Positions 1 through 51,758 of a stretch of DNA of 64,000 nucleotides are shown here, one piece after another. A program made the translations under genes and the position numbers. Below the pieces are notes generated by a model, which was not told the origin of the DNA, did no database searches, and saw nothing but the letters and a program-made list of their open reading frames with translations. The stretch lies in the NCBI GenBank assembly GCA_944393695.1, contig CALYAY010000005.1, positions 33,717 through 97,716 of the forward strand, in the 5' to 3' direction. Source of the DNA: an uncultured Alphaproteobacteria bacterium. GTDB lineage: Bacteria > Pseudomonadota > Alphaproteobacteria > RF32 > CAG-239. Numbering within the stretch: the first letter of the stretch is position 1; each line of letters begins with the position of its first letter.

Positions 1-768
1 TATTTTGACCAAAATCTGGCGGATCTGGATCCGTCCAAGACCCTTTGGAAAACCCTGTGTCATGAAGGTGATCATGTGTGGGTGCGCGGACAGTATAAAC
101 ATGTAGTGGCTTATCTGAAAGACTTTTTGTTTAAACCGGAACAGGCGCAATGTCCGGTAAGCGCCTTATCGGGCGGGGAAAAACGCCGTTTGATGCTGGC
201 TTTGGCTCTGGCTCAGCCCTCAAACCTGCTGGTACTTGATGAACCGACCAATGATTTGGATATGGATACAATCGACCTGTTGCAGGAAGTTTTGGATGAA
301 TATCAGGGAACAGCCCTGATTGTCAGCCATGACCGAGATTTTCTCGACCGGGTGGTTACCTCCGTGATTTATATGCCGGGAGACGGCAGCGCCACCGAAT
401 ATCCGGGCGGATACAGCGATATGGAAGCAAAATTATCCGGCAGGAACGAAAAGTCCCCCAAGGTTAAGGAAAACAGAGGGAATCCAGCAAAAGACAAAGC
501 TCCGGAGAAAACTCAGGAAACGAGAAAAACGGGCAGATTAAGTTATAATCAACAGCGGCTGCTGGAGGTTTTGCCGGAACAGATTAAACAGCTTGAAAAA
601 GAAATTGCCGAACTGATTGAAACACTCAGCAATCCGGATTTATATACCCGGGATCCGGAAAAATTCGACCAGGCCAGTCAGGAACTGGCTGACAAGCGGC
701 AGAAAGTTGAAGATTGTGAGAATCAGTGGCTGGAAATCCAATTGCTTAAGGAAGATTTGGAAAAATAA
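1..768 (+). CDS. ABC-F family ATPase (Uup-like), C-terminal portion; 5' end outside window
   Basis: Frame is open from base 1. ABC signature LSGGEKRRL, Walker B LLVLDEPTNDLD, H-loop SHDR, and a C-terminal coiled-coil/charged tail typical of ABC-F proteins. Confidence 0.8.
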   Translation, partial: YFDQNLADLDPSKTLWKTLCHEGDHVWVRGQYKHVVAYLKDFLFKPEQAQCPVSALSGGEKRRLMLALALAQPSNLLVLDEPTNDLDMDTIDLLQEVLDEYQGTALIVSHDRDFLDRVVTSVIYMPGDGSATEYPGGYSDMEAKLSGRNEKSPKVKENRGNPAKDKAPEKTQETRKTGRLSYNQQRLLEVLPEQIKQLEKEIAELIETLSNPDLYTRDPEKFDQASQELADKRQKVEDCENQWLEIQLLKEDLEK

Positions 769-802
769 AGCCCGGAAATATCCGGGCTTGGCTGGTATGG
801 GA

Positions 803-2788
803 TTAGAATTCGATGACAGGATGAACTGATGCTGTTATAGTGTTTTTATTGGAATATCGATCAGTGCTATAACTGTAGCATATTCCGTACTTGCATACAG
901 ATGAGGCACCTGCAGTCCAGACAAATGTTCCCGTTTTTTCAGTTGATGTCCATATAGTTTGTCTAATATAATTGGAATTTCCGGCCACTTTGCGGATGAC
1001 TGATTGGATAAGCTCTTCATTTTCTGGATATGCCCGGAATACACCAGCTGCCGGCAGGCACCAATCGCCAGATTTTGTTCCTTCTGTTTTATATTCGTGT
1101 GCAGCCCAGGCTGCCGGGTAATCATTTTTATTACCCATAGAAACAATTATATTTGTGTTTTCGCAACTTTGAAAATCTGTTGAGGCAGCTTCATAGCTAT
1201 CTTTATTGGGTATACTCAAATCAATTTGTTCTGTATTTGCTGAAGACCATGTATAACTTGTTTTAAAACTTTCTACAGATATAGCCTGGGCGCAGTTTCC
1301 GTCATCGCTTTTATAAATGACGACGGCGATGGGGGTTTTACCAGAGACGACAGTGGAAGCACAGGTTCCGTCACTGTAAAGAATATCGCCGATATTGCAG
1401 TTTTTAGCATAACCGTTACACTTTCCCCATTCTGCTTTAGGTTCTTCTTTGCAAATGCCGTCTTTCCATTCATAACCGCTGGCACAATTACAGGATTTGT
1501 ATTTTCCGTCACAGGCTTCACCAGAGCCGCCGGCGTAACCGGTGCCGGTGCAGGTGTATTGGTAGTCGGCTGAGCATTGCTTTGTGCAGGTTTGAGAGCC
1601 TGAGTTCCAGTCGTAGCCGGACTGGCAGCCGGTTTTGCAATATTTACCGGAGCAGTCTTCATAGCGGCAGGTGAAGGGTGAGGGGCAGCTGGTGTAAGTG
1701 CATTCATAGGCGCACTGTTTGGTGCAGGTCTTGGTATTTTCATTCCAGTCGTAGCCGGGTTGGCAGCCGGTTTTATAATAAAGACCGGAACAATCCTCGT
1801 AGGAGCAGGTGAAGGGTGCGGGACAGTAGGTGAGGCTGCCGAGATTGGGGCAGGCTTTGCAGTTATCGTATTTTATCTGATTTCCTGATTGGCAGGATTT
1901 TGCACCGATTTCGGGCCCCATGCTGCCGCAATCCATATATCCGTTGCAAGGATTGGGTTTGATTTTATATTTTGTTTGTCCGTTGCAATCCACACAGGCT
2001 TCGCCGTCTTGAACGTAACCGTCGGGAATGGTGGTGTTGTCATAACCGGCGCAGGTGTTGCAGCAGGTGCCGTAAGTATTGTCGTACGAGCAACGGTCGG
2101 AGCTTAATTGCTGGCCGGTGCCGCAGGTATTTGTATAGTTTGGATTTAATTCTTTGCAGGCGCGTTCGGTATCTTTTTCACAGGAGGCATATTTCCCGTC
2201 ACAGTCTTCACCGACGCCATAGTAGGGGACTTCACAGGTGACGTAATTGCTTGGACAGGAAGAAACACATTTTTCGAAATAATTGCTGTCGTAGGGGCAG
2301 GTGTTGACGGGTTCCTGACCTTCGGGACATGAGGTTTGGGTATAGCCTTCCTGACAGCAGCGCTCGGCATTGTCGAGGTCATAATCATCACCTCCGGGAG
2401 GTACGCCGCCGTCATCCTCATCGGCATTATTCCCCGCAAACTCATTGCCGGAACAGTTGGTTGTGTCGGTCACGAAACAGGCGGCTGCGAGTTTTATTTT
2501 TTCACCCTTTTCTTCCCTCCCTAAAGAGTTAGGGAGGGTAAGGGAGGGTTTGAAACCCTCTCTGTCTCTCCCTGAGTTTTCAGGGAGAGTAAGTTCGGCA
2601 AAATCTTCAGGTGAAGACAAATGTCCGGCCGTGAGGTGTGAAGTGTGTGTGGAAACGTGTGATTTAACTCCGGCGGGAATAAAAGACGGGGAAGTGTCAA
2701 AATGATTAAAGTCAGCGCAACACCAATCAGCTCCGGCAATAAGGGACATGCAGGAAGCCGACAACATGAGAATAGTCTTATTCATCAT
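803..2788 (-). CDS. Cysteine-rich secreted protein with C-terminal DUF1566 (Lcl-C-like) domain
   Basis: N-terminal signal peptide. More than 80 Cys in repeated CxxGYDW / CSG modules. C-terminus (GKTPIAVVIY...YPAAWAAHEYKTEGTKSGDWCLPAAG) matches the DUF1566 pattern and is paralogous to 19299..20123. N-terminal half is paralogous to 20414..21508. Confidence 0.75.
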   Translation of the reverse strand: MMNKTILMLSASCMSLIAGADWCCADFNHFDTSPSFIPAGVKSHVSTHTSHLTAGHLSSPEDFAELTLPENSGRDREGFKPSLTLPNSLGREEKGEKIKLAAACFVTDTTNCSGNEFAGNNADEDDGGVPPGGDDYDLDNAERCCQEGYTQTSCPEGQEPVNTCPYDSNYFEKCVSSCPSNYVTCEVPYYGVGEDCDGKYASCEKDTERACKELNPNYTNTCGTGQQLSSDRCSYDNTYGTCCNTCAGYDNTTIPDGYVQDGEACVDCNGQTKYKIKPNPCNGYMDCGSMGPEIGAKSCQSGNQIKYDNCKACPNLGSLTYCPAPFTCSYEDCSGLYYKTGCQPGYDWNENTKTCTKQCAYECTYTSCPSPFTCRYEDCSGKYCKTGCQSGYDWNSGSQTCTKQCSADYQYTCTGTGYAGGSGEACDGKYKSCNCASGYEWKDGICKEEPKAEWGKCNGYAKNCNIGDILYSDGTCASTVVSGKTPIAVVIYKSDDGNCAQAISVESFKTSYTWSSANTEQIDLSIPNKDSYEAASTDFQSCENTNIIVSMGNKNDYPAAWAAHEYKTEGTKSGDWCLPAAGVFRAYPENEELIQSVIRKVAGNSNYIRQTIWTSTEKTGTFVWTAGASSVCKYGICYSYSTDRYSNKNTITASVHPVIEF

Positions 2789-2915
2789 AATAACACCTCT
2801 TAGTCTTAAATTACATTTGTCTTCACGAATCTAATGATAACAGAAATTGAAATGGTTGTAAATAGATAATTTGGCTATATGACGGGAAATCTGACTAGAA
2901 GAAAATAAGGCTGAC
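2789..2915 (-). promoter_or_regulatory. Conserved 5' leader/promoter region shared by the two Cys-rich paralogs (tgtcttcacgaatctaatgataacag ... atgacgggaaatc)
   Basis: Near-identical blocks at 2790..2910 and 21510..21610, immediately upstream of paralogous start codons. RBS aagaggtg precedes the ATG. Confidence 0.35.
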
Positions 2916-3232
2916 ATTTGACCCCTCCGGCTCCCCTTTCTAAAGGGGAGAGGTCAATAAGGAAGATCCCTTGACGTTCAGGCTGGCGCTGAACGAGGGA
3001 TGACAGTTTTTTGAAAATGAAACCCTCCCCAACCTTCTGGCTCCGTAAGTGTTGCCAAGGGGCAACACTAAGTCGTTGCGGTCACTCGGTTTGTAACGCT
3101 CATTTCGCGTTGCTGCCGCTAGCTTATGAGCTAACAAACTCTCGCCTGTCGTTGAAAATATCTCCACCGGAGATATTTTCTGCCTCCGGCCCTGAGTTTT
3201 CAGGGAGGGGGAAGACAAGAAGGAGGATGGCT
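2916..3232. repeat. Composite REP/RPE-like palindromic mosaic repeat cluster (copy A)
   Basis: Modules include gacccctccggctcccctttctaaaggggagagg, cttgacgttcaggctggcgctgaacgagggatgac, gaaaccctcccc and a 120-bp unit. Full composite recurs at 21812..22200. Partial copies at 20140..20410 (inverted) and 43730..44150. Confidence 0.8.
3066..3187. repeat. About 120-bp structured repeat unit, copy 1 (candidate sRNA/structured element)
   Basis: 117/120 identical to 22039..22160. Contains hairpins tgttgccaaggggcaaca, gtaacgctcatttcgcgttgc and tatctccaccggagata. Confidence 0.5.
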
Positions 3233-3262
3233 AAAAAATAAAGCCCCGTTTCCGGGGCTTGG
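3233..3262 (-). terminator. Rho-independent terminator downstream of pyk
   Basis: Hairpin agccccgtttccggggct followed by a T-run on the minus strand. Confidence 0.6.
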
Positions 3263-14982: not shown

Positions 14983-17742
14983 TTAAAACTTGTACTTGGC
15001 GTTAATCAAACCGGTGTGGTCTTCATAGTTATCGCGGAATTTGCCTTCATAACCAAGCGAAAGTTCGACGTTATCGTTAACTTCCGCAGTTACACCCGCG
15101 CCAAACTCCATACCGAAACGGTCAAGGGCTTCGCCGTCAACCGCATAAGCTGAACCGTTAGCCAAAGTTACAACCGAGTTAACGTCGTCGTTAAACAAGT
15201 CGTAAGTTGCGGCAATACGGGCTTCCGGTTTAATCGACATACCATTGTCAAGCTCAAAGGTTTTGTTGACTTTTGCGCCGATAACGCCGGTTAAGATATC
15301 GCTGTCGTTGCCGGAGACTTTCTGGTCGGCAGAATCGGTATAAGCGTCCTGTTTAATATGAACATAACGCAATCCAACTTCCGGCGTAAAGCCAAAGCCT
15401 TTAACCTGCATGTCATAACCGGTCATGGCCTGTAAGCCCAAGGTTTCAACATCATAGTCAGCCTTAACGCCAACCCCGGCAACACTCTTGTCTTCGGAAT
15501 AATCAGACCAGCCGTAGGTGGCAATACCGTTGATATACCAGTTGTTCGGCTTGTATTCACCGTAAACAATCGCGGTATGGGTATCAACATCCGTACTTCT
15601 CATAAAGCCGTCAATATCGGTGTTAGTATAAGCATAACCGGCACCGACTTTGACCGTCCGGCCGATAATTTTTTCAATACCCATGGCAACACCGGCAGAA
15701 TCCGCATCAAAACCTTTGGCTTTGGATGTGTCATCCAGTTCGGAATGATTATACATACCCTGAACCCAGACAGCTGCGTCCGGATTAGTATCACCGGAAG
15801 ACATGCCCTGTGAACCGGTCGAAATTGACCCACCGGTTAAACGGGTTGATACGGCACTAAATACCTGGTTGGCGGTTTCGGTCTGGGTTTTCTGAACCAT
15901 CGGCGCAACTTCAGGAGCTACGGCAGTCAAGGCATCTACATAAGCTTTTTGTGAAGCACTGTCCGTACTGTTAGACAATTGTGCCAGTTTTTCAGCAACT
16001 GCCGCGGCAACCGGGCTGCTGTCGGAAGCGCTTACGCTGTCCCAGGCTTCGGCTGTTGAGGCATTTGAAGTTGTGCCTCCGGCATCCGCAACAATATCGG
16101 AAGCTGTCGTGCCGTTGGCCGTTACCGTATATGTGCCATCACCGTTATCGGCAAAATCATAACGGGAGTTTGAAGTTAAATTGGCGAATTTTCCTTCAAT
16201 TTCAACCGGAGTATCTTCGTCATTAAACAATTTAAGCGTCAGAGGATCATCCCCCGCAGATAAAGCAGCGCTGTTTAAGCTCATATCAAGTGTGGTGCCG
16301 TTTTCGCTGATATTGACATAATTGGCATAGATTTTGCCGTAGGTGTCTTTGTCTGTAACGGTAAATTTCAAAGTCGAATTGTCTTTGAAATGAACACCTT
16401 CGCCAGCAACTTCCTTTTCACCGCCAGAGTGCAATTCATTTGCACCGATGTCAAGCGTAGCTCCTTCACCAACCACAACGCTGGAGGCACCACCGTCAAG
16501 TTCCTTATCATAGGCCAGCGTTCCTTTTTGAATTTCAAAAATATCTAAGCCGCCAATGGTACCGGTTACGGCTTCACTTAAAACGTGGCTGTCTTCAAAT
16601 ATCAGGCTGGCACCTTCAACATTACCGTCGATTTTGGCGTTTGAGTTCTGAAGATGAATTTTGCCGCGGTCATCACCATCAATATTGGCGCTTAAGGTGC
16701 CACCAATGTTAAACTTTGTATCATTATCAGCAACTCTGAGTGTGGCTTTCTGCGCCTGGTCCATATCTTCGGCTGAAACTTTGGCATATAAGGTTGAACC
16801 GGAAGCAATATTAATCTCTGCGCCGTTGAATATATTTATATTCCCGGCAGAAGATATTTCCGCCGAAGAGCCGCTGACATTTATCTTCCCGCCGCTTATA
16901 TTTATGTCGCCCTCATTTTTATAAGTGGTAGAGATTCGAGCTCCGTCTTTCAGGTTAATCTCTCCTCCGCTGATATTAATACTTCCGTTTGAGGCATGAT
17001 ATGGCGATAAATCCAATTCATCTGGATTTAATCCGGCGCTGATAAAATCTTCACGTGAAGCTTCATCTGGATATTTACCAGCTTTCTGATGAAATTCTTC
17101 TTCACTCATAACACTGGTACCGTCTTTTTTGTATAACCAGGAGCTATCATAACCACCGCGTTCAACTTTAGCCATTTCTCCGGTTAAATTAATGGTTCCG
17201 CCGGAAATGTTTATATCGCCGTTTTGACCTTCATGCAAAATACCGCCGTTGTGTATATCTTTTCCACTCTGCCAGATAGCATTTTCCGGTGCTTCTTCAT
17301 TCTCAGGTTTTATACCGCTATAATCCATTGTAATATTAGCATTTCCGCCAATGTTCATATCGGCGTTACCGGTTAATGTAATTTCGCCGCCGTCTTTAAC
17401 TGTAATATCGCCGCCTGTAATATTCATTTCTGCGGCTAATGTATTATATTGTTCATCTTTTCCACTCGCATCAATACTGGCACCGTTTGACAAGGTTATG
17501 AAACCCCCGGTTATAGAAATTTCTTTTTGGTTTGTCCCGTCCGATATTTGCTTAATATCGCCGTCTGCAACAACATTACCGCCAGAAATTGATATATTTC
17601 CTGTCGTCTGGTAATCTTTTTGGTTTTCCATAGTTATTTGCGTGTCCTGATTAATGTTTATATCATCAGAAACTTGTGCATAGGCATTATGGCTGCAAGT
17701 CAGCGCCACCAATGCCGTTGTAATTAAAAGTTTATTTTTCAT
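14983..17742 (-). CDS. Autotransporter adhesin (pertactin-like beta-helix passenger plus C-terminal beta-barrel translocator)
   Basis: Signal peptide MKNKLLITTALVALTCSHNAYAQ (ATG at 17742 with RBS agaggaag). Repeated GG.INISGG.I motifs. C-terminal ~270 aa has alternating beta-strand pattern ending ...INAKYKF. Confidence 0.8.
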   Translation of the reverse strand: MKNKLLITTALVALTCSHNAYAQVSDDININQDTQITMENQKDYQTTGNISISGGNVVADGDIKQISDGTNQKEISITGGFITLSNGASIDASGKDEQYNTLAAEMNITGGDITVKDGGEITLTGNADMNIGGNANITMDYSGIKPENEEAPENAIWQSGKDIHNGGILHEGQNGDINISGGTINLTGEMAKVERGGYDSSWLYKKDGTSVMSEEEFHQKAGKYPDEASREDFISAGLNPDELDLSPYHASNGSINISGGEINLKDGARISTTYKNEGDINISGGKINVSGSSAEISSAGNINIFNGAEINIASGSTLYAKVSAEDMDQAQKATLRVADNDTKFNIGGTLSANIDGDDRGKIHLQNSNAKIDGNVEGASLIFEDSHVLSEAVTGTIGGLDIFEIQKGTLAYDKELDGGASSVVVGEGATLDIGANELHSGGEKEVAGEGVHFKDNSTLKFTVTDKDTYGKIYANYVNISENGTTLDMSLNSAALSAGDDPLTLKLFNDEDTPVEIEGKFANLTSNSRYDFADNGDGTYTVTANGTTASDIVADAGGTTSNASTAEAWDSVSASDSSPVAAAVAEKLAQLSNSTDSASQKAYVDALTAVAPEVAPMVQKTQTETANQVFSAVSTRLTGGSISTGSQGMSSGDTNPDAAVWVQGMYNHSELDDTSKAKGFDADSAGVAMGIEKIIGRTVKVGAGYAYTNTDIDGFMRSTDVDTHTAIVYGEYKPNNWYINGIATYGWSDYSEDKSVAGVGVKADYDVETLGLQAMTGYDMQVKGFGFTPEVGLRYVHIKQDAYTDSADQKVSGNDSDILTGVIGAKVNKTFELDNGMSIKPEARIAATYDLFNDDVNSVVTLANGSAYAVDGEALDRFGMEFGAGVTAEVNDNVELSLGYEGKFRDNYEDHTGLINAKYKF

Positions 17743-18129
17743 ATGATTAAACTTCCTCTTCTTTAATTGCAATTAAAACAAAACCACCTGGTAAGAGGTG
17801 GTCGGAGAGTTCATCAATCATATTGTCTTAAATGATTCTCTTAGCCTTTAAAGTCAAAAAAACTTCTGAACATACGCCAAAAGCTCCCCGACCATAGAAA
17901 CTATGAATCGGGGATATATTTATTGCCTGCCATGATGAGTGGCTGACAATATTACGATGTTATATCCTAACACCGAAGACAATAAGAGCCGATGAAAGCT
18001 CCGCACCATAAAAGTGCTAAATACTGAGTATCCTCAATATCTGTTTTGAGAGTATTAGCTGTTGGTTCGCAAGTCAAGATAAAAATAAAATTTATAATAT
18101 TTCTAACCGGCGGATATTTATCCAAGATA

Positions 18130-18165
18130 AAAAAATGGGTTGCAATTTCTTGCAACCCATTGAAA
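18130..18165 (-). terminator. Rho-independent terminator downstream of rpsI
   Basis: Perfect hairpin gggttgcaa-tttc-ttgcaaccc flanked by A/T runs. Confidence 0.7.
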
Positions 18166-18190
18166 ATATTTGATATTTTCCTGACACCAA

Positions 18191-18667
18191 TTAACGTTTG
18201 GAGAACTGGTAAGAACGGCGGGCTTTGGCTTTACCATATTTCTTACGTTCAACAACACGGTCATCACGAGTCAGGAATCCGGCTTTTTTCAGAACAGATC
18301 TGAGTTCCGGTTCATATTCGTTCAGAGCAATGGAAATACCGTGTTTGATGGCACCGGCCTGACCGGATAATCCACCGCCCTTAACCGTGCAGACAACATC
18401 GAATTCGTTTACACGATTGGTGATTTCGAACGGCTGAGCGATAATCATCTTCAAAACCGGACGGGCAAAATATTCATCAATCGATTTGTCGTTAATGGTG
18501 ATATTGCCTTTGCCGGGTTTGATCCATACGCGGGCAACGGCGTCTTTTCTCTTACCGGTAGCATAGGAACGTCCCTGTTTGTCTTTTACAGACTTGCGGA
18601 CTTTTACTTCTGCAGGAGCAGACACTGCGGACTTAATATCCTGTAAAGATTCAATTTTTTCAGCCAT
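18191..18667 (-). CDS. rpsI: 30S ribosomal protein S9
   Basis: Full-length match including C-terminal [17 protein letters not shown]. Confidence 0.95.
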
Positions 18668-19134
18668 TATAAAGCGCTCCTTTTATTCTTGTTGTTCAGG
18701 GAAGCCATATCCAAAACGATCGGGTTCTGAGCAGCATGCGGATTTTCGGATCCGGCATAAACTCTCAGCTTGGTCATCTGCTGACGGCCCAGCGGATTAC
18801 GCGAAATCATGCGTTCAACGGCCTTTTCAATAACTCTTTCAGGAAAACGGCCTGCCAAAATCTTGCCGGCAGTTGTTTCTTTAATTCCGCCGATCCATCC
18901 GGTGTGTTTGAAATATTTCTTGTCGGTCAGTTTTTTGCCGGTCAGTTTGACTTTGTCGGCATTAATAACAACGACATAGTCACCACAATCCAGATTGGGA
19001 ACAAAGCAGGGTTTGTGTTTGCCACGGAGCAGGCTGGCAACTTTGGCGGCCAGACGTCCGAGCACAACGCCTTCAGCGTCAACAACATACCACTTTCTTT
19101 CAATATCTGACGGTTTTGTTGCATATGTGTTCAT
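18667..19134 (-). CDS. rplM: 50S ribosomal protein L13
   Basis: [29 protein letters not shown]... is the L13 N-terminus. Stop/start coupling with rpsI. Confidence 0.95.
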
Positions 19135-19298: not shown

Positions 19299-20123
19299 TT
19301 AGAATTCAAGGACGGGCCGGACCTCGTAGCGGTTAGGCTTATTGATGGTGTCGCTGCCGTACAACCCGTAGTCGTTGCTTAAATTCGAGTACCACGCGCT
19401 GCCGCCACGGTTCTCGGAAGACGACCAGAGGGAGGAACTTCTTCCTAACTGATCACCACCGGCCAATACAAACCCGGCATTAATCGCCGACATATTGTTT
19501 TTAATACTCGTCATAATACCGGCTGCCGGCAGACACCAATCCCCGGCATTAGTACCCTCTGTCTTATACTCATGTGCCGCCCAGGCAGCCGGATAAGTAC
19601 TCTTATTGCCAGCATTAGTAATAAGAATTGTATTGCTGCAACTCTTAACATCAGTTGCCGCCATCTCTGCACTACTCCAGTTGGTCAAAGTTGTAATATC
19701 CGTGCCGTATCCACTCCACGCATAATCTCCTATTTTTTTCAATGCCATGGCCTGACCACCGCCTGTTCCGTCAACATAAACCACCACACCAATCGGGGTT
19801 TTACCACTGATAACCTTACCATAAGAACAACTTATATCAGAATAAAAAATTGAACCTATGGCGCAATCTTTGGTATTACCACCTCCAATACCACCTTCTT
19901 CAATCACTTTTTTGATTTCCGTGATTTCGGTGGTGATTTCATTAATTTTATCTGCTAAGGTGCAGTTCCAGGCATTGCCGAAGGGACACTTAATCCCGCC
20001 TTCGCAGGATGATGAGCTTTCATAGCCCAAACTAGAACAACTCGGCGTCGGGATACATGCGGCATAAACACTTCCCGCACTTATCACCATTACCCCCACA
20101 CTCGCTAATAATATTTTCTTCAT
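19299..20123 (-). CDS. Secreted DUF1566 (Lcl-C-like) domain protein, paralog of C-terminus of 803..2788
   Basis: Signal peptide MKKILLASVGVMVISAGSVYAA. GKTPIGVVVYVD...YPAAWAAHEYKTEGTNAGDWCLPAAG shared with 803..2788. Nucleotide-level similarity is also visible. Confidence 0.7.
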   Translation of the reverse strand: MKKILLASVGVMVISAGSVYAACIPTPSCSSLGYESSSSCEGGIKCPFGNAWNCTLADKINEITTEITEIKKVIEEGGIGGGNTKDCAIGSIFYSDISCSYGKVISGKTPIGVVVYVDGTGGGQAMALKKIGDYAWSGYGTDITTLTNWSSAEMAATDVKSCSNTILITNAGNKSTYPAAWAAHEYKTEGTNAGDWCLPAAGIMTSIKNNMSAINAGFVLAGGDQLGRSSSLWSSSENRGGSAWYSNLSNDYGLYGSDTINKPNRYEVRPVLEF

Positions 20124-20139
20124 AACCTTTCTCCTTATA

Positions 20140-20410
20140 TTAGTTGTTAATAATATTTACCGTTCCCCTTTTTACCTCGCCCTTGAGGGGAGAGGTCGGA
20201 GCGTAAGCTCCGGGTGAGGGTGACAAAATAAACTGTCATCCCTCGTTCAGCGTCAGTCTGAACGTCAAGGGATCTTCCTTGCTGCTCTCTCCCCTTTTAA
20301 AAGGGGAGCCGGAGGGGTCAAATAGCGCCGCTTTATTCATCAGACTTGCATTCGCCATTCCACCCTCACCCTAACCCTCTCCCCTCAAGGGCGAGGGAAT
20401 AAAGAGCAAT
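20140..20410. repeat. REP/RPE-like palindromic mosaic repeat cluster (inverted orientation)
   Basis: Contains the reverse complement of unit 1 (gtcatccctcgttcagcg...aaaaggggagccggaggggtc) plus gggtgagggtg / ccctctcccctcaagggcgaggg palindromes. Confidence 0.8.
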
Positions 20411-20413
20411 CCC

Positions 20414-21508
20414 CTATCCGCCGCAGAAGTCACAATAATCCGCACAATTCGTCGCACAACCGGTGGCATACCATAAGCCCGAGCATTCTTCATACTGGCA
20501 TATGGTGCAGCTCGGACAGGTGGTGTATTCTCCCAAGTTCGGGCAGGCCTTACAATTGTCATACATGGTGGTTGTTCCCGACAAACAAGTCGAGGCTCCG
20601 GCTTCTCCGCCCATGGAGCCGCAGTCCATATATCCATCACACGGGTTGGGTTTTATCTTGTAATGTTCCTGACCGTCACAACCAAGGCAGCTCTCACCAT
20701 CCTGGACATAGCCGTCGGGAATACTCGTATTGTCGTATCCGGCACAAGTGTTGCAACAGGTGCCGTATAAACTGTCATAAGAACATCTGTCATCGCTTAA
20801 TTGTTGGCCGGTGCCGCATTCATCGACATAACCGGGGTTCAATTCCTGACAGGCGCGCTCAGTGTCTTTTTCACAAGAGGCATATTTCCCGTCGCAGGCC
20901 TCTCCCACGCCGTAATACGGAACTTCACAAGTGACATAATTTGAGGGACAGGAAGAAACACATTTTTCAAAATAAGTGCTGTCATAGGGGCAGGTGTTGG
21001 AAGGTTCCTGACCTTCGGGACAGGAGGTTTGGGTATATCCTTCCTGGCGGCAGCGTTCAGCATTGTCCAAATCATAATCATCGCCGTCTCCGGGACCGCC
21101 GGGAGCCCCGTGTCCGTCATCATCGGCATTATTGCCGCTAAACTCATTTCCCGAACAGGCTGAGGTATCGGTTACAAAACAGGTGGCTGCGAGTTGGGGA
21201 AGAGGGGTGTTGTGAAACCCTCCCCAGCCCCTCCCTAAGTTTTTAGGGAGGGGATAGAATAGATAGTTCCCTAAGTCTTTAGGGAGGGAATAGGATAGAT
21301 AGTTCCCTGAGTTTTCAGGGAGAGGATAAAAGGCAGAAGACAACAACATTTCTTCCGGGTGAGAGGTGTGTGTATAAGGTGTGTGGACAAATGTAACCGC
21401 CCCCGGAGTGTTGAGAGATGTTAGATTATGAATTGAAGCCAAACTGCCGCCGGGCATAAGAAACAGCCCGGAAACCGACAGCATTAATGCTTTGGATAAT
21501 TTCATCAT
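20414..21508 (-). CDS. Cysteine-rich secreted protein, paralog of N-terminal half of 803..2788
   Basis: Signal peptide. Near-identical central block (CFVTDT..CSGNEFSGNNADDD...NAERC.QEGYTQTSCPEGQEP.NTCPYDS.YFEKCVSSCPSNYVTCEVPYYGVGE.CDGKYASCEKDTERAC.ELNP). Lacks the DUF1566 domain. Confidence 0.7.
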   Translation of the reverse strand: MMKLSKALMLSVSGLFLMPGGSLASIHNLTSLNTPGAVTFVHTPYTHTSHPEEMLLSSAFYPLPENSGNYLSYSLPKDLGNYLFYPLPKNLGRGWGGFHNTPLPQLAATCFVTDTSACSGNEFSGNNADDDGHGAPGGPGDGDDYDLDNAERCRQEGYTQTSCPEGQEPSNTCPYDSTYFEKCVSSCPSNYVTCEVPYYGVGEACDGKYASCEKDTERACQELNPGYVDECGTGQQLSDDRCSYDSLYGTCCNTCAGYDNTSIPDGYVQDGESCLGCDGQEHYKIKPNPCDGYMDCGSMGGEAGASTCLSGTTTMYDNCKACPNLGEYTTCPSCTICQYEECSGLWYATGCATNCADYCDFCGG

Positions 21509-21610
21509 AATATCACCTGTCTGTTGTTGTCTTCACGAATCTTATGATAACAGATATTTTACAAATAATCAATGTGTATTTTAAATATAATGACGGGAAA
21601 TCGGACGAGG
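21509..21610 (-). promoter_or_regulatory. Conserved 5' leader/promoter region of Cys-rich paralog (copy 2)
   Basis: tgtcttcacgaatcttatgataacag and atgacgggaaatcgg blocks shared with 2789..2915. Confidence 0.35.
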
Positions 21611-22330
21611 TTTTAAAACCCCCTCTAACTCCCCCTAAAATATTAGGGGGAGGATATAAGGATACTTGATTGTCACCCTCACCCGACACGTTGTGTCGAC
21701 CTCTCCCCTTAAGGGCGAGGTGAAGAAATGGATGACTTTTTTGCCTAGATCCTCGGGTTAAACCCGAGGGTGACAGGGAAAAGGGAGGCTGAGAAAAGAT
21801 AAGGCTGATATTTGACCCCTCCGGCTCCCCTTTCTAAAGGGGAGAGGGCAATAAGGAAGATCCCTTGACGTTCAGACTGGCGCTGAACGAGGGATGACAA
21901 TTTTTATTTGTTTGAATATGAAACCCTCCCCGACCCTCCCTAAGACTTTAGGGAGGGAGATATATGAGTAGAGATTTTAGAGGGATGACATTGCCATACC
22001 CCCTCCAACTTTCTGGCTCCTACTAAGCTCACTACGTTTGCTAAGTCGCTGCGGTCACTCAGTTTGTAACGCTCATTTCGCGTTGCTGCCGCTAGCTTAT
22101 GAGCTAACAAACTCTCGCCTGTCGTTGAAAATATCTCCACAGGAGATATTTTCTGCCTCCAGCCCTATAACTATAGGGGGAGGGTGGGTTTGGGGGCAAA
22201 GGCTTTAGGGGGGGAAAGTATAAGGAAAGTTTTTTTCACCCTCACCCTGACCCTCTCCCCTCAAGGGAGAGGGAAGAATACGGGGAGGTTTTTGGGAGGG
22301 GAATATGGGGTTTAGAAAGGGTGGTAAGGA
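21540..22330. repeat. Large REP/RPE-like palindromic mosaic repeat cluster (includes composite copy B)
   Basis: Stacked palindromes: ccccctaaaatattaggggg, cctcgggttaaacccgagg, tcaccctcaccc...ctctcccc.taagggcgagg, tccctccctaagactttagggaggga. Also contains unit 1 (21816..21903) and the 120-bp unit. Confidence 0.8.
22039..22160. repeat. About 120-bp structured repeat unit, copy 2
   Basis: 3 substitutions relative to 3066..3187. Flanking 30 bp (cttctggctcc...) is also shared. Confidence 0.5.
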
Positions 22331-43729: not shown

Positions 43730-44150
43730 GGATTTTAAAACCCCCTCTAACTCCCCCTAATATTTTAGGGGGAGAGATATTAGGCTGGATTTGTTACCTG
43801 GGTCCTCGGGTTAAACCCGAGGATGACAGAGGGAGAAGGATGACAGTGTCTCTTTCCCACCTCTCCCTTGAGGGGAGAGGTCGCAGAACGGAGTGACGCG
43901 GGTGAGGGTGAGAGGGGTAAGGCAGGTATTTGCTCTCCCCGGCCCTCTCATCTATGAAAGGGTGACAAATTTGAAGATCCCCTGACGTTCAGGCTGGCGC
44001 TGAACGAGGGATGACAGTTTTTATTTGGATATGAAACCCTCCTACTCCCCCTAAATTTTTAGGGGGAGGGTGATTTGGAGGACTAAGACTTTAGGGGAGA
44101 GATATAGGGGAAACAAAAAAATCCCCTCGAGGGGAGGGGAAATTTTGTTA
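43730..44150. repeat. REP/RPE-like palindromic mosaic repeat cluster
   Basis: Shares ccccctaatattttaggggg, cctcgggttaaacccgagg, cctctcccttgaggggagagg, gggtgagggtgag, and the 3' half of unit 1 (gaagatcccctgacgttcaggctggcgctgaacgagggatgacag) with the other clusters. Confidence 0.8.
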
Positions 44151-51537: not shown

Positions 51538-51758
51538 GGCATAGAGAAGAGCTGTCCGGTGCGTAGTTCCCGCAAGTCTTCCGAGCCAACATTATCTTTA
51601 AGGGAACTGTCACTGAGCAAATCGTGGTTTGTTTATATGGTGCCCACCTATTTGACAGCGGTTCGTGTGGAATGCACTAGATACGGCTGTGACGGCCCTT
51701 CTCGCCAGTTTTTAATTTTAACATGACGAAAATCCCCGGTTCGGGATTTTCGTGTTTT
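51538..51758 (+). ncRNA. ssrS: Candidate 6S RNA (SsrS) with intrinsic terminator
   Basis: Immediately downstream of zapA (conserved zapA-ssrS synteny). 5' gagaagagc pairs with 3' gcccttctc (closing stem). Terminator hairpin aaaatccc-cggttc-gggatttt plus T-run at 51729..51758. Confidence 0.5.

Follow-up and report, generated by a model that had tools for sequence, protein, structure and literature searches.

The host gene and its in-frame insert

The window analysed here is a stretch of 64,000 nt from an uncultured Alphaproteobacteria bacterium (RF32; CAG-239; contig CALYAY010000005.1, positions 33,717-97,716). Near its start, on the reverse strand, lies a gene for a secreted cysteine-rich protein of 661 aa, which carries in frame a 90-nt block of three palindromic modules. 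A first-pass annotation of the same DNA had quoted two palindromes inside this open reading frame (ORF), at 2505-2600. Both were found there and are read as it described, and the block itself maps to 2510-2599. The features of the locus are the following:

803-2788, reverse strand: gene for the secreted Cys-rich protein, 661 aa (from the ORF, its homologs and an AlphaFold2 model with fold search), laid out as signal peptide, linker of low confidence, Cys-rich repeats of EGF/TNFR-like type and, at the C-terminus, a domain similar to the C-terminal domain of Legionella Lcl
2834-2862, reverse strand: promoter-like site, sigma-70-like -35 and extended -10 (TTTACA, 17 nt spacer, TG-TATCAT), from a consensus scan only
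2794-2801, reverse strand: Shine-Dalgarno sequence AAGAGGTG, with 5 nt between it and the ATG at 2788, from reading of the sequence; paralogs share the same 5′ untranslated region (UTR)
2714-2788, reverse strand: signal-peptide-like N-terminus MMNKTILMLSASCMSLIAGADWCCA, end approximate, with a hydrophobic core conserved in kind across the family
2600-2713, reverse strand: conserved pre-insert segment, residues 26-63, with the motifs THTSH and LSS(P)EDF (34-sequence alignment)
2510-2599, reverse strand: in-frame insert of 90 nt, 30 codons, A64-E93 (AELTLPENSGRDREGFKPSLTLPNSLGREE), composed of three palindromic modules (blastn against the empty-site locus L067)
2566-2589, unstranded: hairpin module 1, CTCTCCCTGA-GTTT-TCAGGGAGAG, translated LPENSG
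2544-2560, unstranded: hairpin module 2, GAGGGTTT-G-AAACCCTC, translated EGFKP
2515-2538, unstranded: hairpin module 3, CCCTCCCTAA-AGAG-TTAGGGAGGG, translated LPNSLG
768-789, reverse strand: terminator-like hairpin and T-run directly after the stop codon of the gene

The palindromes are nearly perfect: CCCTCCCTAAAGAGTTAGGGAGGG at 2515-2538, (C)TCTCCCTGAGTTTTCAGGGAGA(G) at 2566-2589 and, between them, GAGGGTTTGAAACCCTC at 2544-2560. On the mRNA-sense strand, a 116-nt segment (2495-2610) folds as RNA into exactly these three hairpins at -52 kcal/mol (z = -5.64). Folding of the same segment as DNA gave z = -5.80, with none of 200 shuffles as good. In the window, the 18-mer CCCTGAGTTTTCAGGGAG has 5 matches with up to 3 mismatches, for 0.03 expected, and the 24-mer has 3, for 0.00 expected. 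With neither gathering nor E-value thresholds did Rfam return a family for the modules; the weak miRNA and snoRNA matches at 2495-2598 are generic hairpin noise. Elsewhere in the window, Rfam recognised a 6S RNA (RF00013, 69.2 bits) at 51546-51702 on the forward strand.

The insert sits between ...EDF and KGxK and the protein is read across it as ...SSPEDF-AELTLPENSGRDREGFKPSLTLPNSLGREE-KGEKIKLAAACFVTDT... (continuation also given as KGEKIKLAAACF). As the first-pass annotation held, the repeats are in frame with the coding sequence: a 96-nt segment over the insert (codons 61-92) is free of stops in one of the three sense frames, the frame in use. Their placement directly after the signal peptide did not hold, as the insert starts at residue 64, about 40 residues past the predicted signal peptide and behind THTSH...LSS. 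The term 'pro-region', also proposed for this linker, is speculation.

The Sec signal peptide was judged by the appearance of the N-terminus and by family conservation. The corresponding segment of distant paralogs closes with a canonical AxA, as in ...LLPMSAMA|N. Ahead of the insert, T47, H48, S58 and S59 are at least 90% conserved among 34 family members (49-78% identical overall), and the THTSH/LSS motifs and M1 are kept even in paralogs differing by 50%. The 560 residues outside the insert region are intact, with every invariant cysteine present. No significant Pfam match was obtained for the host protein or for either paralog, and exact-protein look-up of the window protein and of its homolog P0006 gave no record.

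AlphaFold2, run with the 34-sequence alignment, assigned a predicted local distance difference test (pLDDT) score below 50 to residues 1-137, with the fold becoming confident at about residue 138 and onwards; the low scores are consistent with a disordered N-terminal region. Foldseek related the C-terminal domain to 8q4e_A, the Legionella Lcl C-terminal domain (E = 6e-4, template-modelling (TM) score to target 0.57), and to 4eps, a Bacteroides fimbrial protein (E = 6e-7), the predicted TM score (pTM) of the model being 0.40. The Cys-rich repeats are weakly related to EGF/TNFR-like modules. As judged by this model, the protein resembles an adhesin, secreted or at the surface, whose flexible N-terminal stalk should accommodate additional unstructured residues without harm.

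Many REPs (repetitive extragenic palindromes) predicted in the N-termini of ORFs are really extragenic, with translation starting further downstream (Di Nocera et al., PMC3733652), and some gene callers put the starts of two broken family copies (P0026 and P0099) inside or after the module region. By analogy, the repeats of 803-2788 could belong to a 5′ UTR or leader, the true start lying downstream and the long upstream ORF being fortuitous. However, no ATG, GTG or TTG occurs between the insert and the family-invariant C104/F105. The first start-like codon, and the sole in-frame one past the insert, is GTG106, after these residues and with no Shine-Dalgarno sequence. The ribosome-binding and promoter-like sites, the signal-peptide-like N-terminus, M1 and the conserved THTSH/LSS motifs are all upstream. 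Moreover, the mature part, rich in invariant cysteines, should need export, and the only signal peptide precedes the insert. Finally, 78 of the 80 module-bearing homologs considered below keep one frame over 30-144 aa, the other frames being full of stops. On these grounds a downstream start, which the first-pass annotation had named as what would refute it, was rejected as extremely unlikely.

The modules belong to an intergenic repeat family

The first-pass annotation had assigned the palindromes to the family that forms intergenic clusters. Repeats of the window were mapped at k = 15; a map at k = 12 was dominated by chance matches. The following features were obtained:

2870-3240 (about 2817-3207 in the k = 15 map), unstranded: intergenic mosaic cluster between the pyruvate kinase terminator and the promoter of 803-2788
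20175-20396, unstranded: intergenic module cluster
21527-22272, unstranded: intergenic module cluster upstream of the paralog 20414-21508
43733-44135, unstranded: intergenic module cluster adjoining no member of the Cys-rich gene family
3036-3193, forward strand: four-hairpin element of 159 nt, with a second copy at 22041-22167, also in frame inside linkers of other family members
20414-21508, reverse strand: paralog of the N-terminal and Cys-rich part, 364 aa
21194-21334, reverse strand: in-frame module insert of 141 nt in this paralog, at the same protein position (AFYPLPENSGNYLSYSLPKDLGNYLFYPLPKNLGRGWGGFHNTPLPQ), its composite module opposite in orientation to that of the first gene

In this map the multi-copy DNA of the window consists of the four intergenic clusters, the two linker inserts and ordinary paralog homology, and nothing else. 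Identical copies of the 18-mer CCCTGAGTTTTCAGGGAG lie at 2570 in the coding sequence of the first gene, at 3190 (3190-3207) in intergenic DNA and at 21305 in the coding sequence of the paralog. Similarly, a composite of about 45 nt, T[GC]AAACCCTCCC-NN-CCCTCCCTAA-N6-TTAGGGAGGG, aligns between the first gene, the paralog and the intergenic positions 21920-21963 and 44025-44075. The modules thus belong with the intergenic repeats, as had been claimed. The search of other coding sequences that had been suggested found modules, in the window, in the two paralogs of this family only.

The modules are short, multi-copy palindromes that lie mostly outside genes and often in pairs or clusters, in line with the 20-40 bp REP definition. 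The clusters mix several types of palindromic units and linker motifs in variable order and orientation, as in bacterial interspersed mosaic elements (BIMEs), and the protein linkers use the same vocabulary. Stems read CTCCCT.../CCCTCCCT...; GTAAG recurs nearby, and neither GTAG nor CGTC does. The 159-nt element forms four separate hairpins when folded as RNA (z = -6.35) and is bounded by direct TTCTG[GC]CTCC repeats. It had no match in Rfam or in the plasmid database, and a distant blastn search of PLSDB with the intergenic cluster gave no match. Cluster 43733-44135 is located between a helix-turn-helix gene and an unrelated gene. Since it is not beside a family gene, the modules are not debris of this gene family.

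In the paralog, the 141-nt insert is open in one of six frames. It includes a tandem array of a 36-nt (12-codon) unit, hairpin plus spacer, at 21232-21328 (2.7 copies, 86% matches), which encodes the 12-aa period NYL[SF]Y[SP]LPK[DN]LG; homologs carry 1-4 copies. The composite module is in the sense strand in the first gene (GFKPSLTLPNSLGRE) and antisense in the paralog (LPKNLGRGWGGFHN), and the resulting peptides are unrelated.

The paralog is part of a two-gene version of the family. The 364-aa protein carries the N-terminal Cys-rich part, and a 274-aa protein (19299-20123, reverse strand), with its own lipoprotein-like signal peptide, carries the Lcl-like C-terminal domain. Module cluster 20175-20396 separates the two genes. 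The same pair occurs in locus L064 of another assembly (16602-17852 and 18161-19000).

Linkers of homologous proteins are mosaics of the same modules

We collected 312 homologs of the 803-2788 protein, all from metagenomes or metagenome-assembled genomes (MAGs), and surveyed the linkers of the best 120. A scan of GTDB genomes gave 55 loci, none of the window's own species, which were used as module-free outgroups; a scan of JGI metagenomes gave 6 distant loci, not useful for the linker. GTDB representatives with the family are 'uncultured Alphaproteobacteria' MAGs, and other matches are labelled human gut metagenome. The family is expanded, with at least 20 paralogs per MAG (L003-L057; BRZ_SN__bin90, BRZ_RF__bin97 and others). 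Many matches among these loci are at contig ends, which suggests that family genes routinely break short-read assemblies.

The linker was taken as the stretch from the LSS motif to the CFVTD anchor. It measures 8-12 aa (S(S)DEIKLAA) in distant paralogs and 16-17 aa (LEDFNKGDNKxIQLAA) in the 'empty' close relatives P0006, P0027, P0029, P0075 and P0101, so that the relatives without the insertion called for by the first-pass annotation do exist. Modules were found in 78 of the best 120 homologs, with 72 distinct linkers of 35 different lengths, from 30 to 144 aa. All 78 are continuous with a signal-peptide-like N-terminus; two others are broken in the module region.

These linkers can be read back to intergenic DNA. 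TSPL[KR]GEV is the translation of ACCTCTCCCCTTAAGGGCGAGGTG, LDPR[IV]K[SP]EDD that of GATCCTCGGGTTAAACCCGAGG, and ATLSRCGHSVCNAHFALLPLAYELTNSRLSLKISPPEIFSAS that of the 159-nt element at 3036-3193. When about 2.1 kb of window intergenic clusters is translated in six frames, exact 5-mers of the products account for 1424 of the 6603 residues in the linkers; for twenty control segment sets the figure is 15-190.

In contrast, in the 330 kb around the 55 distant paralogs, four of five module patterns had no match and the fifth had one. As these paralogs have neither modules nor inserts, repeat family and inserts are confined to one and the same lineage. Within the window and some 63 kb of loci from close relatives, intragenic modules are all in this family, apart from a spurious 60-aa ORF over an intergenic cluster. 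A protein search with a module-only peptide of 131 aa returned 9 short ORFs or fragments and missed known family members, and is unusable as a negative census of other families.

Several further observations concern these linkers and their genes. The 159-nt element is found in frame (156 nt, ...ATLSRCGHSVCNAHFALLPLAYELTNSRLSLKISPPEIFSAS...) inside at least 7 family genes elsewhere. Linkers of P0037, P0123 and P0128 carry a further, longer translated module type (...RRKENNPVNCFLTTGAELLICDPATATEANVTVAADRSKLVLP...) with no counterpart in this window. One paralog, P0036 (663 aa; L064:10001-11992, ERZ28614156 scaffold_2155), lies between rplO (L15) and secY, thus inside an otherwise canonical ribosomal-protein/secY/adk operon, and a second pair, of 416 aa and 279 aa, follows rpoA in L064. 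Gene callers also place spurious small ORFs (60-111 aa) over module clusters (L002:3547-3729; P0122, P0124, P0126), and these enter databases as hypothetical proteins.

The palindrome rather than the peptide appears to be inherited

In the LPxxxG units, the first residue on the loop side and the fifth residue covary as base pairing demands: K (AAA) with L (TTA) in 58 cases, E (GAA) with S (TCA) in 45 and N (AAC) with L in 13, with only 2 mispaired. In coding copies with DNA available, 93 of 104 stem positions are paired. Together with the unrelated peptides produced by each orientation, this covariation and pairing points to a DNA or RNA palindrome as the inherited unit, the peptide being a by-product.

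Alternatively, LPxxxG could be a native functional peptide repeat (a stalk, processing or anchoring motif), its intergenic copies being decayed gene fragments. The units do recur in one frame and in tandem arrays of 36-nt (12-aa) period, and most intergenic clusters of the window adjoin family genes. However, cluster 43733-44135 adjoins none. Intergenic copies occur in both orientations and together with modules lacking any coding context, such as the 159-nt element and the GATCCCTTGACG... hairpins. The composite is translated in opposite orientations in two paralogs, the amino acids covary exactly according to base pairing (K..L, E..S) with the DNA stems kept paired, and the empty-site and distant homologs do without such units. 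We consider this explanation very unlikely.

Empty and filled sites, nesting and broken copies

Comparison of loci gave direct access to sites with and without modules. Locus L067 matches the window at 97.2% identity from the 5′ UTR through the N-terminal coding sequence to the last base before the insert, and the match resumes at AAGGGTGA... The window thus has 90 nt (2510-2599) where L067 has AAT. The empty L067 was also compared with L068, filled with another mosaic: their 3-kb downstream flanks are 97.6% identical, and 101 nt replaces 23 nt. This common flank indicates alleles of one locus in two samples.

A more complex state is found in the L064 gene. It carries the window insert at 100% identity over 73 nt and, nested in frame at the foot of hairpin 3, a 156-nt version of the 159-nt element, 93% identical to the one at window 3036-3193, with three further module types added. 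Across the family, several insertion points are found within about 10 codons: after EDF, after EDFNKDD and after LSS.

Not all copies are open. L065 has one additional C in a CCC run of a module, which causes a frameshift (L065:2760-3165), L066 has lost the whole module block out of frame (L066:1-300), and L067 has a 74-nt deletion in the signal-peptide region (L067:2900-3030). Pseudogenes, phase-variable states and assembly errors are all conceivable explanations for these copies. Where a linker is broken, the gene would still be found by way of its C-terminal ORF of about 550 aa. The ratio of 78 intact to 2 broken is therefore a reasonable sign of selection for an open frame, though the copies are not independent.

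The broken copies, the frequent location of family genes at contig ends and the known tendency of repeats to cause assembly errors (PMC6868369) could also mean that filled genes are pseudogenes or assembly artefacts and that no functional gene in a living cell carries the insert. Against this, the window insert is identical base for base in a separate ENA assembly, ERZ28614156 (L001, 99.5% over 2.2 kb), where the gene has the same neighbours, pyruvate kinase and ABC-F. At the level of the protein it is also present in a Brazilian sample (P0002/L069). The other 560 residues are undamaged, and intact frames in 78 of 80 cases are far above what decay would give. Such an artefact is thus highly improbable.

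Probable colonisation of a permissive linker

Taken together, these results suggest, with good probability, that REP/BIME-like modules have colonised a permissive linker of an adhesin-like family and turn over there under an in-frame, stop-free filter. GC-rich palindromic modules (hairpins of about 17-45 nt and the 159-nt element), forming REP/BIME-like intergenic mosaics in this lineage, would enter one permissive site, the linker of low confidence that runs from the signal peptide/THTSH motif to the first conserved cysteine. In 803-2788 the 90-nt block would be transcribed and translated within the protein, and the repeat peptide would be tolerated because the linker is unstructured. The first hairpins may act as a nucleus, new modules inserting beside or into existing ones. 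Units would then duplicate in tandem, blocks would be deleted, and blocks are probably swapped among paralogs. Selection would discard variants that shift the frame or bear stops, leaving nearly every hairpin to be read in the one frame it has without stops (LPxxxG). What the peptide contains most likely travels with the DNA palindrome as a passenger, not selected for itself. The anatomy of the sequence, the family to which the modules belong, the empty and filled sites, the preserved frame and the confinement to one lineage are direct results of the comparison; translation through the insert is inferred from frame conservation, and the mechanism of mobility and neutrality are likewise inferences.

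Several points weigh against this interpretation. Neither clear target-site duplications nor terminal inverted repeats were found at the empty/filled junctions, and a search of the ten unassigned small ORFs of the window revealed no transposase or REP-associated tyrosine transposase (RAYT). Recombination or hairpin-directed template switching is therefore as plausible as transposition. The frameshift in L065 and the out-of-frame deletion in L066 are exceptions to the preservation of the frame. The many linkers do not count as independent events, given their shared ancestry and gene conversion. Moreover, the comparison sequences are all short-read metagenome assemblies, in which near-identical 5′ ends of paralogs and short repeats favour mis-joins. 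Part of the 72 architectures could thus be chimeric, and an assembly switching inside a module would keep the frame.

The cluster could instead be adaptive, as a recombination-prone cassette for length or antigenic variation of the stalk, or as an mRNA structure slowing ribosomes at codons 64-93, at the moment when the signal peptide emerges, and so aiding Sec targeting. In favour of such a role are the extreme variability at one site of a host-associated, adhesin-like family that is expanded to at least 20 paralogs per MAG, the great stability of the hairpins and the recurrence of the position, about codons 64-93, in all paralogs. Nevertheless, empty alleles and whole related species lacking modules still keep the family expanded, and the module content simply reflects that of the intergenic clusters. 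We regard an adaptive role as unlikely.

A bolder extension of the colonisation scheme would make the linker a dedicated landing pad. Its hairpins would attract modules from the genome-wide pool and promote exchange among the 20 or more paralogs, yielding new in-frame variants of the adhesin stalk, with a possible secondary translation pause about 40 codons past the signal peptide. This is rather unlikely. If true, it would represent a repeat-driven diversity generator built of 'junk' intergenic palindromes.

Relation to known palindromic repeats

In-frame intragenic insertions of REPs and of Rickettsia palindromic elements (RPEs) have been documented, including clusters encoding 43-82 aa (PMC3733652, PMC3184786, PMC10969869). 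RPEs are single units of about 100-150 bp found in many unrelated housekeeping genes and largely fixed between species (Ogata et al. 2000, reviewed in PMC10969869 and PMC3184786). As in that system, alphaproteobacterial palindromes are found here both between genes and in frame within ORFs, the frame is preserved, and the host protein would tolerate the peptide, as it does for RPEs. However, instead of one long hairpin of 100-150 bp, we observed hairpins of 17-24 nt, a composite of about 45 nt and a four-hairpin element of 159 nt. RPE targets are scattered, whereas these mosaics occupy one site of one paralogous secreted family (as sampled) and are highly variable. The host also differs, being a free-living or gut-associated uncultured alphaproteobacterium. 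The term 'RPE-like' in the first-pass annotation is to be taken as an analogy: the case seems to work like RPEs and intragenic REPs, and we claim membership of neither family.

Intragenic REPs of the GTAG/CGTC superfamilies are palindromes of 20-40 bp, often in dimers or groups, and encode 20-30 aa (Di Nocera et al. 2013, PMC3733652). The modules resemble them as short clustered palindromes inside genes. Unlike them, they carry no evident GTAG/CGTC tag (GTAAG instead). No RAYT was found among the ten unassigned small ORFs of the window. Genes of DNA repair and replication are the favoured targets of the intragenic REPs reported so far, whereas the inserts described here, of up to about 130 aa, are in a signal-peptide-proximal linker.

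Likeness to Escherichia coli BIMEs lies in the mosaic arrays, the small vocabulary of palindromes and spacers in varied order and orientation, and the gathering of new units at existing clusters. BIMEs are however extragenic, and here the mosaic is inside a coding sequence and kept in frame. Transposable elements of the miniature inverted-repeat type (MITEs; Nezha and Anabaena MITEs, ERIC, BOX, Correia; PMC3184786, PMC10969869) are also small non-autonomous repeats with open frames fused to host ORFs. In contrast to MITEs, the junctions here show no terminal inverted repeats or target-site duplications, and the 159-nt element is bounded by direct, not inverted, repeats. Variable-number tandem repeats (VNTRs) of bacterial surface proteins are similar as length-variable in-frame repeats in an unstructured stalk, the 36-nt unit here being present in 1-4 copies. 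The repeat units here are nevertheless not private to the gene and belong to a genome-wide intergenic palindrome family.

What differs is the architecture: a mosaic cluster at one site, hypervariable between paralogs and strains, with inserts of up to about 130 aa and nested insertions. Our literature searches retrieved no description of a full mosaic confined to one site of one expanded secreted family, hypervariable and nested.

Implications

Rickettsia provides the best-known case of in-frame colonisation of genes by palindromes, a phenomenon that has been regarded as an oddity of reduced intracellular genomes. The same phenomenon, in a different form, would here take place in an uncultured human-gut alphaproteobacterium. 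In practice, such linkers confuse gene callers and assemblers, with spurious small ORFs over the clusters and contigs breaking at family genes. Empty and filled orthologous sites, nesting, tandem amplification and occasional frame breaks provide a natural series for studying how modules move. The same series may also inform on what makes a protein site permissive, and on whether peptides encoded by repeats are neutral passengers or raw material for surface variation.

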